Made by a program: the position numbers and the translations under genes | Assembly (NCBI GenBank): GCA_964531785.1 | Contig: CAZHFF010000002.1 | Span: 157,851-221,850 of the forward strand | Direction: 5' to 3' | Origin: an uncultured Candidatus Saccharibacteria bacterium | GTDB taxonomy: Bacteria > Patescibacteriota > Minisyncoccia > Phycocordibacterales > UBA12088 | DNA: 64,000 nt | Notes under the pieces: model-generated | The model's database searches: none | Told to the model about the DNA's origin: nothing | The model's input: only the letters and a program-made list of their open reading frames with translations | Part shown: piece by piece, positions 1 through 37,916 of the stretch | Layout: each line of letters begins with the position of its first letter | Numbering within the stretch: the stretch's first letter is position 1

Positions 1-573
1 CACGCACTCGTTGGGTCTGTGCTCCCGAACTCCGACCCGGTGCATAAGATATCCATCATCTCAAGGGGAAGGGCGGCCGGGTATACGCTCACACTTCCGT
101 TCGAGGATCGACGCATGCAGTCGCGCAAGGAGTTCTATGACGACATCGCAAAGACCTTGGGCGGCTATGTTGCGGAAGAGACCGTGTTTGGCGACCTGAC
201 GACGGGGGCAAGTAACGACCTGCAGGTACTGACCGCGCTCGCGCGGAACATGGTCGCTCGATGGGGAATGAGCGAGAAGATGGGACCACTCGCCTACGAG
301 TCGGACGGCGGCCGGACCATGTTCGGGCCGGGTATTGGCGAGCGTGACTACTCTGATAAGGTGGCGAGTCAGATCGATGAAGAGGTCGAGCGGATCATCC
401 GTGATGCCTATGAACGTGCAAAGGAGGTGATCACGACCCACCGCAAGGCGCTCGACGCCATCGCGAAAAAGCTGGTCGAGGTCGAGACACTAGAACGCGA
501 TGATTTCGAGAAGATACTGATCCTCCACGGCATAGAGCCGAAGAAGCGAGAGGACGATGTCCCTCTTATATAG
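1..573 (+). CDS. ftsH: ATP-dependent zinc metalloprotease FtsH, C-terminal part (5' end outside window)
   Basis: Frame open from base 1. Translation KISIISRGRAAGYTL...TTGASNDLQVLTALARNMVARWGMSEKMGPLAY is typical of the FtsH M41 peptidase C-terminal domain. Confidence 0.9.
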   Translation, partial: HALVGSVLPNSDPVHKISIISRGRAAGYTLTLPFEDRRMQSRKEFYDDIAKTLGGYVAEETVFGDLTTGASNDLQVLTALARNMVARWGMSEKMGPLAYESDGGRTMFGPGIGERDYSDKVASQIDEEVERIIRDAYERAKEVITTHRKALDAIAKKLVEVETLERDDFEKILILHGIEPKKREDDVPLI

Positions 574-1956: not shown

Positions 1957-4254
1957 ATGCATAAGACCATCAACAAGACCCTGGTTTCCCTGATGTTGTG
2001 CGCGTTCCTCAGCGCCGCATGGGGCACACCACACGCACTGGCGGCGGGTCAAAAGCAGCAAAAGAACGACGTATCGAAGTACGAGACAAGTTCACGTATC
2101 GAGCATACGCGAATGGACGAGCGCCGCGCGCAGGTAGACGAGCGTTTGAAGCGAGCAAATGAACGACTACATGAGCGTATCAGGGCACTCGAGAACCGTA
2201 TCTGTCGGAGCTATGCACAGTTCGAGCGCTTCGGGGTTACGGTACCACTGCCTACGTTCTGTCGTGGCAGCGGTTCAGGATCTGCGCCACAGCTCATCAT
2301 GACCGTGACGCCAAGTTCGGTCGTTGCCGGTGGAACCGCGCAGCTTACGTGGACGAGCGAACATGCCAGTTCTTGTACCGCGAGCAATGGTTGGAGTGGT
2401 ACGCGGCCAACAAGCGGCACCGAACAGGTAGCACCGGCAACCACTACCACCTATACGCTCACCTGTGTCGGGCCCCACGGCACGATCGAAAAGTCCGCCA
2501 TCCTTTCCGTAGAGAAGAACGGTCTTCCGACCCCTACGATCTCGCTCAATGCAGCGCCTTCGAGCGTGGTGAGTGGAGCAAGCACCACGTTGACCTGGGT
2601 AAGTACGCATGCAGCAACCTGCACCGCAAGCGGTGGCTGGAGCGGACCGCGCGCCACCTCGGGTAGCGAGGTCGTAACACCGACCGCGACTACGACCTAC
2701 GAGCTCGCGTGTTCGAACGCAACAGGAACGGCCACCACGAGCGTCGAGGTCGGGTTCATGGAGGCGGTGTCGGTGCCGACAGCTAGCCTTGTTGCAGAAC
2801 CAGCGTTGGTCACGTTTGGCGGGACAAGTACGCTGAACTGGGACTCGCAGCACGCGACCGGATGCATGGCTTCCGGCGCGGCCGACTGGAGCGGCCCGCG
2901 TGCAGCGACCGGTAGTGCACTTGTCACTGTGTTCGCAACGACCACCTATGTGGTCGAGTGTGGGGACGGGGTAAGCAGCTCGACCGCGAGTGCGACCGTA
3001 TCGGTCGTGCCGGTCGCCGTTTCACTTCCGACCGTCACCCTCAGCGCAGATCCTGTCCTGGTGGAAGCCGGAAGTAGTACCACGTTGACCTGGGTAAGTA
3101 CGCATGCAGCAACCTGCACCGCAAGCGGTGGCTGGAGCGGACCGCGCGCCACCTCGGGTAGCGAGGTCGTAACACCGACCGCGACTACGACCTACGAGCT
3201 CGCGTGTTCGAACGCAACAGGAACGGCCACCACGAGCGTCGAGGTCGGGTTCATGGAGGCGGTGTCGGTGCCGACAGTGAGTCTCACGGCCGCGTCGACC
3301 CAAGTCACCGAGGGATCGACCACCACCCTTACCTGGGAGAGCACCCATGCCACAGCGTGCATGGCGTCTGGTGCCGGTGACTTTACCGGGGACCGGGCAC
3401 TTGCGGGACAGGTAGAGGTGACCGTGTCCGCCCTGACGACGTACACGATCACCTGTGGCAATGGGACCGCAACCGCCACCGATTCAGTGACAGTTACGGT
3501 CACCCTGCCAGAGGGCACGGTCCCAACGGTCAACCTCAGCGCACTGCCTTCGTCGGTCGCGTCAGGCGCCACATCGACCCTGGCCTGGAACACAAGTGGA
3601 GCTGATTCATGTGAAGCGCTCCTCGGATGGACCGGTACACGTGCAACTTCAGGCGAGGAGATCGTGAGCGTTACTGGCACGACGACCTATGAGTTGCGGT
3701 GCGAGAACGCGTACGGAACAACAACAAGCAGCGTTGAGGTCGTTGTGGTCGCCGAGGCCGATCCGGTCAGCACCATGCTGATCAGCGAGTTCGTATTCAA
3801 CCCGGCGGGCACAGAACCAGGGAATGAATGGGTAGAGCTCTATAATGGAAGCACCGGCCCCATCGATCTTATGCATTGGACGCTCGCCGATGCAAGCAGC
3901 TCAGACCTGATCGCGACAAGCAGCAAGGTCATTCCTGCCGGCGGCTATGTGGTCATAACCTCAAGTACGACGCTTGCACAAACCCTCATAGCAGGCGGTG
4001 TGGATGCGATCGCGGCTACGTCGAGCATCGGACAGAACGGCCTCAGCAACACAGGTGACGCACTGTTCTTGCGGGACCCTGCGGGTACGCTAGTGGACGC
4101 GGTGAGCTATGGGACGAACACTATGGCGTTCTCCCCGGCACTTTCGATCGCAGGTATGGCAGAAGGCGCATCTTACGCACGCGTACCGGTTACCGTTGAT
4201 ACCGACACCGCAGCTGACTGGGTGATCCTCACGGTACCGACACCGGGCTCGTAG
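1957..4254 (+). CDS. secreted surface protein: signal peptide, coiled coil, six ~82-aa Ig-like repeats, C-terminal lamin-tail domain (LTD)
   Basis: N-terminal hydrophobic signal LVSLMLCAFLSAAWG. Six repeats share the pattern TLxW.S..A..C.ASGGWSG.R..SG...V.P..TTTY.L.C. C-terminus LISEFVFNPAGTEPGNEWVELYN...GDALFLRDPAGTLVDAVSYG matches the LTD pattern. Confidence 0.8.
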   Translation: MHKTINKTLVSLMLCAFLSAAWGTPHALAAGQKQQKNDVSKYETSSRIEHTRMDERRAQVDERLKRANERLHERIRALENRICRSYAQFERFGVTVPLPTFCRGSGSGSAPQLIMTVTPSSVVAGGTAQLTWTSEHASSCTASNGWSGTRPTSGTEQVAPATTTTYTLTCVGPHGTIEKSAILSVEKNGLPTPTISLNAAPSSVVSGASTTLTWVSTHAATCTASGGWSGPRATSGSEVVTPTATTTYELACSNATGTATTSVEVGFMEAVSVPTASLVAEPALVTFGGTSTLNWDSQHATGCMASGAADWSGPRAATGSALVTVFATTTYVVECGDGVSSSTASATVSVVPVAVSLPTVTLSADPVLVEAGSSTTLTWVSTHAATCTASGGWSGPRATSGSEVVTPTATTTYELACSNATGTATTSVEVGFMEAVSVPTVSLTAASTQVTEGSTTTLTWESTHATACMASGAGDFTGDRALAGQVEVTVSALTTYTITCGNGTATATDSVTVTVTLPEGTVPTVNLSALPSSVASGATSTLAWNTSGADSCEALLGWTGTRATSGEEIVSVTGTTTYELRCENAYGTTTSSVEVVVVAEADPVSTMLISEFVFNPAGTEPGNEWVELYNGSTGPIDLMHWTLADASSSDLIATSSKVIPAGGYVVITSSTTLAQTLIAGGVDAIAATSSIGQNGLSNTGDALFLRDPAGTLVDAVSYGTNTMAFSPALSIAGMAEGASYARVPVTVDTDTAADWVILTVPTPGS
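2584..2782 (+). repeat. copy 1 of a perfect 199-bp direct repeat inside the surface-protein gene (Ig-like unit 2)
   Basis: Base-for-base identical to 3079..3277 (offset 495 bp = 165 codons, in frame). Confidence 0.95.
3079..3277 (+). repeat. copy 2 of the perfect 199-bp direct repeat (Ig-like unit 4)
   Basis: Identical to 2584..2782. The flanking bases differ (agc/agt upstream, c/t downstream). Confidence 0.95.
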
Positions 4255-4342: not shown

Positions 4343-4418
4343 GCGCGCATAGCTCAGTTGGTAGAGCGCCGAGCTTATACCTCGGTGGTCCTAGGTTCGA
4401 GTCCTAGTGCGCGCACCA
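4343..4418 (+). tRNA. tRNA-Ile, anticodon UAU (CCA encoded)
   Basis: Hand-folded cloverleaf: acceptor GCGCGCA/TGCGCGC, D arm GCTC-AGTTGGTA-GAGC, anticodon arm CCGAG-CTTATAC-CTCGG (TAT at 34-36), variable TGGTC, T arm CTAGG-TTCGAGT-CCTAG, A73, CCA. Confidence 0.85.
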
Positions 4419-14220: not shown

Positions 14221-14244
14221 TGCGGAGGGTGTGGGATTCGAAGC
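14221..14244 (-). repeat. partial duplicate (22/24 nt) of the tRNA-Ser 3' end (T-loop, T-stem 3' strand, acceptor 3' strand, 3 trailer nt)
   Basis: Plus-strand tgcggagggtGtgggattcgaaGc versus tgcggagggtAtgggattcgaaCc at 14379-14402. There is no complementary 5' T-stem, so it is not a tRNA. Confidence 0.85.
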
Positions 14245-14380
14245 TTACAGCTTCAGTACCCTTTGCTGCTCTTTTGGTTCGCTTCGCTCCCAAAACAGCG
14301 TGCAAAGGCTTCGAATCCGTGTCACGCGTTTCTGCGAAACGCTACACATACCCTCTACAGCTCTCATGATGTTCGATCTG

Positions 14381-14467
14381 CGGAGGGTATGGGATTCGAA
14401 CCCATGAGGGGTTTTACCCCCTACCTCGTTAGCAGTGAGGCGCTTTCGACCACTCAGCCAACCCTCC
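14381..14467 (-). tRNA. tRNA-Ser, anticodon GCU (class II, long variable arm; CCA not encoded)
   Basis: Minus strand GGAGGGT-TG-GCT-GAGTGGTCGAA-AGC-G-CCTCA-CTGCTAA-CGAGG-TAGGGGGTAAAACCCCTCAT-GGG-TTCGAAT-CCC... ACCCTCC-G. Acceptor 7 bp; variable stem AGGGG/CCCCT. Confidence 0.9.
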
Positions 14468-34368: not shown

Positions 34369-34388
34369 AAAAACGACCGCACCGGTCG
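34369..34388 (-). terminator. Rho-independent terminator closing the tRNA-CAU/echo unit
   Basis: Minus strand CGACCG-GTG-CGGTCG followed by TTTTT, immediately after the duplicated tRNA 3' end. Confidence 0.65.
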
Positions 34389-34398
34389 CCTTTCGCTT

Positions 34399-34418
34399 CG
34401 TGTTGCGGGGCCTGGATT
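34399..34418 (-). repeat. perfect 20-nt duplicate of the tRNA-CAU 3' end (T-loop end, T-stem 3' strand, acceptor 3' strand, 4 trailer nt)
   Basis: cgtgttgcggggcctggatt is identical at 34399-34418 and 34619-34638 (offset 220 bp). Confidence 0.9.
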
Positions 34419-34544
34419 CGGGGTCAAGTTGCATCGGTATTCCTTTACGCTTCGCTCAAGTAATACCGTGCACTTCCTCCCCGACCTCGCTTGCTCCTCT
34501 CCGCAGAGTGCGAATCGGAACAAAGCTGCGGTTTGCAAATCCGG

Positions 34545-34569
34545 ACGCGAGCAAAGCAGTTTACTCGCT
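34545..34569 (-). repeat. conserved 25-nt hairpin, copy A (AGCGAGTAAACTGCTTTGCTCGCGT on the tRNA strand)
   Basis: 24/25 identical to 37764-37788 (plus strand), in the same orientation relative to the adjacent tRNA. Stem GCGAG(T/C)AAA/TTTGCTCGC, loop CTGC. Confidence 0.85.
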
Positions 34570-34622
34570 GCCCGCGCCCACGTAACAGGAAAACGGCCTC
34601 ATCAGCCGTTTTCCTTGCCGTG

Positions 34623-34693
34623 TTGCGGGGCCTGGATTTGCACCAGGGCCTCAAGGTTATGAGCCTTGCGAGCTACTACTGCTCTACCCCGCA
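34623..34693 (-). tRNA. tRNA with anticodon CAU (Met, or Ile2 if lysidine-modified); atypical features
   Basis: Minus strand TGCGGGG-TA-GAGC-AGTAGTA-GCTC-G-CAAGG-CTCATAA-CCTTG-AGGC-CCTGG-TGCAAAT-CCAGG-CCCCGCA-A. U1:A72 pair, G at position 55, no GG in the D-loop, CCA not encoded. Confidence 0.65.
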
Positions 34694-36747: not shown

Positions 36748-36824
36748 GCCGGGGTAGCTCAGGTGGTTAGAGCGAGGGACTCATAAACCCTAGGTCGGAG
36801 GTTCAACTCCTCCCCTCGGCACCA
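36748..36824 (+). tRNA. tRNA with anticodon CAU (Met/Ile2; CCA encoded)
   Basis: GCCGGGG-TA-GCTC-AGGTGGTTA-GAGC-G-AGGGA-CTCATAA-ACCCT-AGGTC-GGAGG-TTCAACT-CCTCC-CCTCGGC-A-CCA. A31:A39 mismatch; G1:C72. Confidence 0.85.
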
Positions 36825-36930
36825 AAGCAGTGCGACGCCGCTTCGGGAACGACACTTCGCGGTACCCGTTTGGAGCGGTCGTGTGCGGGTCGTTGAAGCA
36901 TAGTACCGTTGAAAGCAACTCCTGGTCTCC

Positions 36931-37563: not shown

Positions 37564-37647
37564 GCTGCCGAACACAGCTACCTGGAACGTGCCTTGCTAT
37601 TTGTCCTTTGCTGTATAATAATGGCGCAACGTAGCGTAGCTACGGAT

Positions 37648-37721
37648 GCGGGTGTAGCTCAGCTGGTTAGAGCGTCCGCCTGTCACGCGGAAGGTCGAGG
37701 GTTCAAGTCCCTTCACCCGCG
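37648..37721 (+). tRNA. tRNA-Asp, anticodon GUC
   Basis: GCGGGTG-TA-GCTC-AGCTGGTTA-GAGC-G-TCCGC-CTGTCAC-GCGGA-AGGTC-GAGGG-TTCAAGT-CCCTT-CACCCGC-G. Confidence 0.9.
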
Positions 37722-37758
37722 CACACGCAAACAGCCCCTCCGGGGCTTTTTGCGTGTG
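37722..37758 (+). terminator. long perfect hairpin immediately after tRNA-Asp (terminator-like)
   Basis: cacacgcaaa-c-agcccc-tcc-ggggct-t-tttgcgtgtg. Confidence 0.6.
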
Positions 37759-37763
37759 CGGTG

Positions 37764-37788
37764 AGCGAGCAAACTGCTTTGCTCGCGT
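37764..37788 (+). repeat. conserved 25-nt hairpin, copy B (AGCGAGCAAACTGCTTTGCTCGCGT)
   Basis: 24/25 identical to the reverse complement of 34545-34569. Followed directly by AAGGGACTTGAA (37789-37800), the exact reverse complement of the tRNA-Asp T-loop/T-stem TTCAAGTCCCTT (37702-37713). Confidence 0.85.
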
Positions 37789-37916
37789 AAGGGACTTGAA
37801 AAGCAGAGCCATGTCGCAAAGCGACAGGCGAGCTCGGGTAGGAGCCACCCGCTAGAATTGGAGCACAGCGACGTGCATCCATAGGTCGTGTACTTATGCT
37901 CGGGTATACTGCAGGT

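Follow-up and report, generated by a model that had tools for sequence, protein, structure and literature searches.

Direct repeats that run from the T-loop of a tRNA gene to its 3' end are reportedly typical of integrase-mediated insertion into tRNA genes, and the prophages and islands that use this sublocation are among the described systems closest to the one presented here. Group I introns are also known in tRNA genes of Patescibacteria, at an anticodon-loop position (PMC13011429). We have analysed a stretch of 64,000 nucleotides (nt; the window) from an uncultured Candidatus Saccharibacteria bacterium (assembly GCA_964531785.1, contig CAZHFF010000002.1, positions 157,851 to 221,850 of the forward strand), in which the 3' ends of tRNA genes carry a non-coding cassette of ~110-230 nt. 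An initial annotation had described, behind tRNA-Asp, a conserved hairpin found also beside a CAU tRNA and followed by an inverted copy of the T-arm of the tRNA. Both are pieces of this one cassette, which has two further features missing from that annotation, a terminal direct repeat of the tRNA tail (present at tRNA-fMet and tRNA-Ser, lost at tRNA-Asp) and two covarying hairpin domains. A search of the full-text literature, the hairpin sequence included, returned no description of the cassette. We propose tentatively, giving it a little less than an even chance, that the cassette is a non-autonomous miniature element that inserts specifically into tRNA T-loops and carries a replacement tail. 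Patescibacteria genomes are among the smallest and most streamlined of bacteria, and yet in the window cassettes are found at three of the six tRNA genes, together with one possible remnant, and relatives are present in more than 100 species.

The copy behind tRNA-Asp contains the features listed here. The 25-nt conserved hairpin is called hp1, R1 is a covariance model built from an alignment of 37 class-A 5' domains (with this copy in the seed and the fMet copy outside it), and L083 and L108 are two loci of the set described below.

37648..37721 (end at 37721 or 37722), plus strand: tRNA-Asp (GTC), called by ARAGORN and by Rfam (tRNA, 73.3 bits).
37720..37760, plus strand: trailer hairpin after tRNA-Asp, terminator-like with a T-run, arms 37720-37738 and 37742-37760 (95% complementary).
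37758..37763, plus strand: GCGGTG, 5' half of the antisense segment; one base short, it reverse-complements the CACCCGC of the acceptor 3' strand (from the sequence and the general rule across loci).
37764..37788, plus strand: hp1, GCGAGYAAACTGCTTTGCTCGC, with the core GCGAGCAAACTGCTTTGCTCGC at 37765-37786 (sequence and covariation).
37789..37800, plus strand: 3' half of the antisense segment, AAGGGACTTGAA, an exact reverse complement to TTCAAGTCCCTT at 37702-37713, which comprises the 3' strand of the T-stem and the T-loop (inverted-repeat search).
37802..37834, plus strand: first body domain, with stem AGC/GCT, internal loop AGA/GA, stem GCC/GGC and hairpin GTCGC-AAA-GCGAC (R1, 88.3 bits as a seed member; covariation).
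37835..37864, plus strand: last hairpin, 5' half only, including CACCCGC at 37846-37852 (the similarity to the intact L083 and L108 ends at 37864).

When the sequence was re-read, everything located by the initial annotation was in its place, although several items have to be interpreted differently. The trailer hairpin had been called perfect (37722-37758); the hairpin is real and near-perfect. Its portion at 37733-37747 has the GC-rich stem and T-run of an intrinsic terminator in a terminator scan, and the whole hairpin is the centre of a long imperfect palindrome that links the tRNA tail to the antisense copy. The 12 nt after hp1 are indeed the exact reverse complement of the tRNA-Asp T-loop/T-stem, and by our own rough estimate the chance of a perfect 12-mer inverted repeat within ~150 nt is ~1e-5. 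The hexamer GCGGTG had been compared with the 5' acceptor strand, but reading it as the 3' acceptor strand in reverse complement describes it better, and in relatives the complementarity runs into the trailer; hp1 is placed exactly at the acceptor/T-stem junction of the antisense segment. On the other hand, CACCCGC had been taken as a repeat of the acceptor 3' strand, a suggestion we abandon because the heptamer is kept at the same place in L083 and L108 despite their different acceptor strands, and there it forms one strand of the conserved last hairpin. The Asp unit is truncated at 37864 and the 3' half of the last hairpin and the direct repeat are missing, both being intact in L083 and L108. 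The fold of 37700-37864 (-89.5 kcal/mol, z = -7.75) has the antisense segment paired with the tRNA's own tail across the trailer hairpin, in a three-way-junction geometry with the conserved hairpin. The tRNA-Asp gene does not encode CCA, and a promoter scan placed a promoter-like site upstream of it, at 37594-37622.

The only other copy of the 25-nt hairpin in the window lies on the minus strand at 34545-34569 with 1 mismatch (0/100 shuffles had such a match), in the same order relative to its CAU tRNA, as the initial annotation had noted. This is an initiator-type tRNA with a complete unit, and a third module is found behind tRNA-Ser.

34622..34693, minus strand: initiator-type tRNA-Met (CAT) with a C1-A72 mismatch (ARAGORN, Rfam, sequence).
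34582..34621, minus strand: trailer hairpin after tRNA-fMet, arms 34587-34597 and 34605-34615 (100% complementary).
34532..34579, minus strand: antisense segment split by hp1, with GGGCGCGGGC (34570-34579), hp1 in a U-G variant (34545-34569) and CCGGATTTGCAAA (34532-34544) (sequence).
34419..34531, minus strand: body of the fMet unit, two hairpin domains (R1 match and fold).
34400..34418, minus strand: direct repeat of the tRNA-fMet 3' end, AATCCAGGCCCCGCAACAC, starting inside the T-loop (direct-repeat search).
34370..34399, minus strand: second, diverged copy of the trailer hairpin past the direct repeat (49-nt direct repeat, 76% identical; terminator-like at 34374-34388), probably the original terminator of the gene, displaced.
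14380..14467, minus strand: tRNA-Ser (GCT) (ARAGORN, Rfam).
14221..14379, minus strand: third module, of another class, behind tRNA-Ser (sequence and fold).

An R1 search of the window gave exactly two significant matches, the Asp copy and the fMet copy, the latter at 34480-34579 with 65.9 bits and E = 3e-13 from outside the seed. In the fMet unit CCGGATTTGCAAA complements the unusual T-loop of this tRNA, TGCAAAT, including the fMet-specific base G55, and the fold (-83.5 kcal/mol, z = -5.8) is closed by the antisense segment pairing with the direct repeat. The Ser module starts with an antisense part, GAGGGTATG (14347-14355), a different hairpin, TGTAGCGTTTCGCAGAAACGCGTGAC (14321-14346), and a second antisense part, ACGGATTCGAA (14310-14320), continues with a long hairpin plus TACTGAAGCTGTAAGCTTC, and ends with a 22-nt direct repeat of the tRNA tail (14221-14242, 1 mismatch). 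Its fold (-57.2 kcal/mol, z = -4.96) has the same closing helices as the fMet unit, and the end of its body matches locus L099 at 93.6%. The claim that three tRNAs have modules customised to them therefore stands. The hairpins themselves are not invariant, as had also been claimed: that of tRNA-Ser (GCT) is different, and hp1 is optional, given that in tandem units of L083 and L108 the antisense segment is continuous and lacks the hairpin. ARAGORN and Rfam found no tRNA on either strand of 37758-37864 or 34400-34581.

A set of related loci was obtained by an exact search for the 22-nt hp1 core (GCGAGYAAACTGCTTTRCTCGC) in one genome per species, giving at least 119 loci and 127 hp1 copies, most of them from metagenome bins; as the loci were picked by an exact hp1 match, all frequencies below are skewed toward hp1-containing units. 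The 170 nt past hp1 were read at all listed loci to define the full unit. About 96 of the 119 are named Patescibacteria (also called candidate phyla radiation), including Saccharibacteria, Paceibacterota, Kaiser-, Nomura-, Magasanik- and Kerfeldbacteria and others, and 13 are unnamed 'bacterium' bins. The closest to the window among those listed is L083, labelled Saccharibacteria, with the gene order around tRNA-Asp in common. R1 had 124 matches in 100 of the listed loci. Ten loci bear record names from other phyla, Burkholderiales and Gammaproteobacteria among them (L001, L004, L042, L059, L039, L046, L047, L102, L110 and L113), which are bin labels; three of them (L001, L004 and L042, labelled Burkholderiales/Betaproteobacteria) have in common a compact unit of ~106 nt.

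In its complete form, read along the tRNA strand, the unit comprises the last ~20 nt of the tRNA, a trailer hairpin that is usually terminator-like, the reverse complement of this tail and trailer (usually split by hp1 at the acceptor/T-stem junction), two hairpin domains and a direct copy of the last ~19 nt of the tRNA starting from the T-loop, past which the flank resembles the original flank of the gene. Of 75 assessable units, 45 have the direct repeat, which was sought 100-170 nt past hp1. It starts most often at C56 or G57, with from 0 to 7 T-loop bases included, and the duplication is ~19-55 nt long. A GTA-type tri-loop (GTA, TGTAA, CGTAG) caps the last hairpin before the repeat in nearly all cases, for example at L099 5459-5551, L022 1045-1130 and L001 3319-3400. 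A motif of the GAGCGAAGCGAG type, which holds a GCGAAGC mini-hairpin, recurs in terminator-less spacers and at the tip of the last hairpin. One copy, L018 at ~60-215 (minus strand), has a 56-nt insertion of two similar hairpins inside the hp1 loop, and in L018 and L033 a GAGC microhomology joins hp1 to the direct repeat that precedes it.

The association with tRNA genes is strict in position and orientation. A same-strand tRNA was found within 150 nt upstream of 83 of the 127 hp1 copies and within 400 nt of 8 more (91/127), while no copy had a tRNA on the opposite strand within 400 nt. Units were found at tRNAs of 16 amino-acid types in more than 100 genomes, with the same kind of matching that the initial annotation had suggested for three tRNAs. 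The check it had proposed, to search for the hairpin and tabulate its neighbours, was carried out on 83 hp1-tRNA pairs, with 6578 non-cognate pairings as the control. The 7 nt after hp1 plus 2 matched the T-stem/loop at 7/7 in 46/83 cognate pairs versus 79/6578 non-cognate ones, and the 8 nt before hp1 matched the acceptor strand at 8/8 in 30/83 versus 27/6578. An ordinary hairpin of the repetitive extragenic palindrome (REP) or terminator type with a chance match to the T-arm, scattered among unmatched flanks, had been named as the outcome that would overturn the idea. Such an explanation has in its favour that hp1 is a short, GC-rich, multicopy palindrome with a few copies lacking a nearby tRNA. 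These are, however, mostly at contig ends or behind partial tRNA tails, and the cognate-specific flanks together with the fixed position behind tRNAs have no place in it. Furthermore, the terminator scan did not list hp1 in the window, where the sequence after it, GTAAGGGAC, has no T-run. We consider this explanation refuted for practical purposes, and for the same reasons (91/127 copies ≤400 nt behind a same-strand tRNA and tRNA-matched flanks) the cassette was rejected as a REP or a bacterial interspersed mosaic element (BIME).

Units without hp1 also exist. Among tRNAs of the listed loci with no hp1 nearby, 20/89 have an antisense T-arm copy within 260 nt versus 4.4% of non-cognate controls, and 10 of these 20 have the direct repeat too. 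In one subfamily (L063, L069, L078, L080 and L119) the complement of the T-loop is replaced by YGAGAA and the complements of T-stem and acceptor are still matched to the tRNA. At 2800-3150 and 5690-6000 of L108 there are two complete units of the Asp subfamily with no tRNA detected upstream, preceded only by the last ~8 nt of an Asp-like tail; one of the two is followed by a further, hp1-less unit.

The folding of the unit is conserved well beyond the tRNA-matched parts. The minimum-energy folds of 55 units show a recurrent architecture, in which the direct repeat is paired through its acceptor part with the 5' half of the antisense segment and through its T part with the 3' half, hp1 branching off and the two body hairpins being enclosed. 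The z-scores of the units in the window go from -5 to -8. In the alignment of 37 class-A 5' domains, for which one 3-bp stem was a selection criterion and the remaining body stems were unselected, 95.4% of the cells are paired and the covariation is 0.360, versus 0.133 in shuffles (0/500 reach the observed value) and at most 0.086 when the partners are slid. Across this and the larger, model-fitted alignment, which leans toward the structure of R1, the values are 95-96% of cells paired and a covariation of 0.36-0.40, with shuffles at 0.11-0.13 and slid partners ≤0.09. In the larger alignment both-sided changes were found at all 20 pairs, including all nine of hp1, and the hp1 pairs are 99.9% paired in variant copies. 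The tRNA strand folds more stably than the opposite one in 43/55 units and G-U pairs outnumber A-C pairs 37 to 21, indicating that the folded molecule is the tRNA-sense strand. This molecule may be RNA or single-stranded DNA, as both are compatible with the sequence, and the frequent GNA tri-loops and GCGAAGC-type mini-hairpins would suit either of them.

These folds raise the alternative that the cassette is a cellular non-coding RNA, co-transcribed with the tRNA, in which the pairing of antisense segment and repeat would close a mimic of the acceptor stem stacked on the T-stem. In such a molecule hp1 would replace the D and anticodon arms and the body the T-loop, RNase P, RNase Z and the CCA-adding enzyme would process it, and it would have some tRNA-linked function. 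The recurrence of the architecture in 55 unit folds (with z = -5.8 for fMet and -5.0 for Ser in the window), the covariation of hp1 and body stems and the bias toward the tRNA strand and toward G-U pairs all agree with it, and so does the pairing of the acceptor part, not used in the selection, which averages 6.3/8 versus 4.65 with shuffled partners. Moreover, hp1 is located exactly where nucleotides 8-48 leave a real tRNA, and many units have no terminator between tRNA and module, so that these must be co-transcribed. Yet in about half of the units a strong terminator lies upstream of the proposed RNA, and truncation or absence of the repeat is common, as in 30 of the 75 assessable units and the Asp copy of the window. 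Tandem arrays, interchangeable body classes and an optional hp1 would be unusual for a housekeeping RNA, and the covariation between antisense segment and repeat is not independent evidence, being automatic if both copy one tRNA tail. At the positions that distinguish the two tail copies, the antisense segment follows the one in the upstream tRNA and not the repeat that it would need as a partner. We regard an RNA of this kind as rather unlikely, though it is the main rival to the insertion element proposed above.

Three other interpretations of the fold were examined and rejected. A tRNA-like gene on the opposite strand with a hairpin between T-stem and acceptor has no 5' partner for the T-stem and no ARAGORN or Rfam call, and it is the tRNA strand that folds better. 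The end of the class-B body, 'ACUGA...GUAA...CGAA', recalls a hammerhead core, but by eye the invariant G8-A9 is absent. A group I intron gave no Rfam match up to E = 10 in the window or at the gathering score in 18 loci, and the cassette is located at the T-loop and 3' flank.

The two copies of the tail found in a unit differ at T-loop bases 54-57 and in the trailer after base 73, and the antisense segment agrees 260 times with the tRNA-attached copy and 23 times with the downstream repeat. A single long palindrome thus starts in the tRNA tail and passes through the trailer hairpin, with the antisense segment as its second arm; given that this segment follows the genomic trailer and not CCA, it was not copied from a mature tRNA. 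A further alternative is an antisense guide, acting in cis or in trans, in which the split segment binds by pairing either the 3' half of the cognate tRNA (or pre-tRNA) or the gene itself, and directs processing, cleavage, modification or termination, hp1 being a protein handle as in guide-hairpin-guide RNAs. Its complementarity does extend from T-loop base 54 to the 3' end and trailer, following the tRNA-attached copy even at the fMet-specific G55, which is outside the downstream repeat, and there is a three-way junction with the conserved hairpin. hp1 is present also in other small elements beside tRNA and 5S-like genes. The target bases, however, are locked in the acceptor and T stems of the folded tRNA, the T-loop complement is swapped for YGAGAA in one subfamily, and some units dispense with hp1. 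No partner protein was identified among the open reading frames (ORFs) within 3.5 kb of the loci, and a guide would leave the downstream repeat and the body without a role. An antisense guide thus seems improbable to us.

Other features would fit the movement of DNA. CCA is found after the repeat in 9/48 cases and after its tRNA-attached partner in 3/48, and it is encoded in 25/91 tRNAs without a module versus 8/85 with one, so that the repeat with its flank looks like the native end of the gene. Tandem arrays were found in L010, L025, L033, L083, L099 and L108. In L083 an extra hp1-less unit is located between the tRNA and the counterpart of the Asp unit of the window, what suggests that arrays grow at the tRNA side. 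Two units from a single genome, L069 (at tRNA-Ser) and L119 (at tRNA-Asp), have bodies that are nearly identical by eye and different tRNA-matched segments. In L001 the duplication comprises the tail and the whole terminator (55 nt, 1 mismatch) and the antisense segment is mismatched to that tRNA. In 27 of the 119 listed loci the distance from hp1 to a true contig end is no more than 250 nt, as expected of a multicopy repeat that disrupts assembly.

All this would fit a miniature insertion element with a replacement tail, as would the truncations and the several interchangeable classes of body. The element would enter the T-loop of a matching tRNA gene and bring with it a replacement for the tail and a terminator, leaving the gene intact and displacing the original tail downstream. 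Repeated entry would build the tandem arrays, and decay would leave truncated copies such as the Asp unit of the window. The customised appearance of the modules would then follow from the design, in which the long hairpin needs the tRNA tail as one arm and, as the other, a sequence that pairs with it. We infer the polarity of insertion, the mobility itself and an enzyme acting in trans, and the support for insertion with a replacement tail is statistical, not direct.

Several observations weigh against such an element. No empty site was found, neither by a metagenome scan with the fMet repeat plus flank (0 matches) nor by BLAST of post-repeat flanks against the other loci, which returned only further modules. 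No excised form was found either, and no transposase or recombinase among the ORFs within 3.5 kb of the listed loci, where clustering gave no recurrent family (the largest is present in 7/119). As for a vehicle, hp1 was without a match among 2.9 million viral contigs, as was one representative 159-nt unit (L013) among phage and plasmid records. The 5' edge of the repeat, varying over 0-7 T-loop bases, is unlike one precise cleavage site, and the CCA asymmetry is modest. Near-identical bodies at different tRNAs could reflect gene conversion between old resident copies and not recent movement, and selection on a cellular RNA would likewise be compatible with the strong covariation of the stems and with hp1 being kept exactly in distant classes. 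Finally, no demonstrable step accounts for the matching of the antisense segment to a new tRNA. The cassette has no coding capacity, and Rfam 15 gave only tRNAs plus one RNase P elsewhere in a locus (window at the gathering score and with E up to 10; 18 loci at the gathering score).

The direct repeats, being the classical signature of integrase insertion, could also be the scars of larger elements, prophages or integrative elements that had entered at T-loop attachment sites and were later deleted, leaving the site repeats and some flank. The duplication of the terminator at the fMet locus agrees with such an origin. Deletions would nonetheless leave random end points, and what is found is a uniform small size with a conserved, covarying interior across over 100 species. 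Nearby there is no integrase and no other recurrent gene, and the searches of viral, phage and plasmid sequences mentioned above gave no match. We consider such scars very doubtful.

Two more speculative variants, which we think somewhat unlikely when taken together, are an element guided by its own nucleic acid, or a hidden population of RNAs mimicking tRNA tails behind up to half of the tRNA genes of Patescibacteria and handled by the tRNA-end machinery. In the former, the split antisense segment, as a strand that may be RNA or single-stranded DNA, would pair with the T-loop-to-3' end of the tRNA gene, direct insertion there and be re-templated for each tRNA type. Either of them, if true, would represent a new class of tRNA-linked genetic element, with relatives on the 5' side that use the D-loop. 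Actually, hp1 was seen within other small elements with bodies unlike those of the 3'-side units (L095, L096, L098, L037 and L070). Some are upstream of tRNAs and directly repeat the tRNA 5' end as far as D-loop G18-G19, L037 has the element inside a D-loop, and in L070 it is beside a duplicated 5S-like segment.

If the miniature element that we propose is mobile, it would colonise essential single-copy genes harmlessly by rebuilding the gene end without encoding a protein, which raises the questions of where the catalysis comes from and how the matching to each tRNA is written. If the cassettes function as RNAs, the tRNA genes of a major bacterial radiation have in them a partner that had gone unrecognised. 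In practical terms, they break assemblies, and their partial tRNA copies can mislead tRNA annotation and those island finders that rely on tRNA-fragment repeats.

Elsewhere in the window, the initial annotation had suspected a weaker version of the module after the plus-strand CAU tRNA. The motifs are there (GTTGAA at ~36884 and CAACTCCT at ~36909), although not beyond chance.

36884..36917, plus strand: possible decayed remnant after tRNA-Met (36748-36824), with GTTGAA, GTACC-GTTG-AAAG-CAAC and CAACTCCT (sequence only).

This remnant is not significant alone, being too short to be separated from chance, and has no R1 match. A tRNA-Ile at 4343-4418 with anticodon TAT, uncommon in bacteria, encodes CCA and has no module; a 9-nt antisense match to its T-arm (1 mismatch) 49 nt downstream is within the chance rate.

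Among known systems, a resemblance to tRNA-like domains is evident in the closing helix, which imitates an acceptor stacked on a T-stem as in transfer-messenger RNA (tmRNA), viral 3' tRNA-like structures, bacterial Y RNA and RNase P external guide sequences, other structure taking the place of the remaining tRNA. The cassette, in contrast, copies a neighbouring tRNA of any identity, exists in many versions per genome and lacks a T-loop, and ARAGORN and Rfam found in it no tRNA, tmRNA or other match. With guide-hairpin-guide RNAs (the H/ACA pocket, the loops of the IS110 bridge RNA and the tigRNA of TIGR-Tas; PMC12045711) it shares two guides around a conserved hairpin with one contiguous target, but both of its halves are paired to one and the same strand, with every target base in a pair, and it has no box motifs, no 36-nt arrays and no adjacent gene of Nop, Cbf5 or IS110 type. 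TIGR-Tas itself was rejected on position and architecture (PMC12045711). The primer-binding site of retroviruses and long terminal repeat (LTR) elements is similar in having ~18-20 nt complementary to a tRNA 3' end with the inner boundary in the T-loop. In the cassette the complementarity runs into the genomic trailer and not CCA (for example in L007, L012, L021 and L040), indicating derivation from a gene or precursor and leading us to discard a primer-binding site for mature tRNA; nor was a gene for reverse transcriptase seen in the vicinity. The Dada DNA transposons of fish (PMC8869645) are alike in having families specialised on particular tRNA genes, but are eukaryotic and protein-coding, make 6-7 bp duplications and insert in the anticodon stem or nucleotides 8-13, disrupting one copy of a multicopy gene.

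The ends of IS200/IS605 elements and PATE, REP/RAYT, integron attC sites and the ends of IS91 and Helitrons are, like the cassette, non-coding, hairpin-rich and strand-specific. Recognition in the cassette would likewise be by intramolecular pairing beside a hairpin, and its GNA tri-loops are typical of DNA mini-hairpins. No HUH or integron integrase gene was found nearby, although no genome-wide search was made. The insertion point of the cassette follows G53-T54-T55-C56, and GTTC is what we take to be the target tetranucleotide of IS91. The single-strand elements differ in pairing over ~4 nt (~20 nt in the cassette), in having no long target duplication and in conserving hairpins at both ends; compared with IS200/IS605 PATE, the cassette has a GTA-loop hairpin 0-2 nt from the right junction, a left hairpin that varies between copies and a long duplication. 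A miniature inverted-repeat transposable element (MITE) was rejected on account of an inverted repeat that joins the tRNA tail to an internal segment and not both termini, and of a duplication of ~19-55 nt versus 2-10 bp.

There is a likeness, too, with the integrase-borne tRNA islands and prophages of the T-loop sublocation and with their deleted, non-autonomous derivatives, the cis-mobilizable elements (CIMEs), which have an intact tRNA, a direct repeat from the T-loop to the 3' end and a tandem build-up. No integrase gene was found in or adjoining the unit, and no ORF family recurs within 3.5 kb. As in an integrative element, however, the direct repeat is at the far end and the intact tRNA at the near end (45/75 units, and in the window fMet and Ser). 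The cassette is set apart from those islands by its size of only ~110-230 nt, by an attachment region that is also present in antisense, by a fold that covaries, and by its presence at 16 or more tRNA types with a variable repeat edge, an integrase usually keeping to one site.

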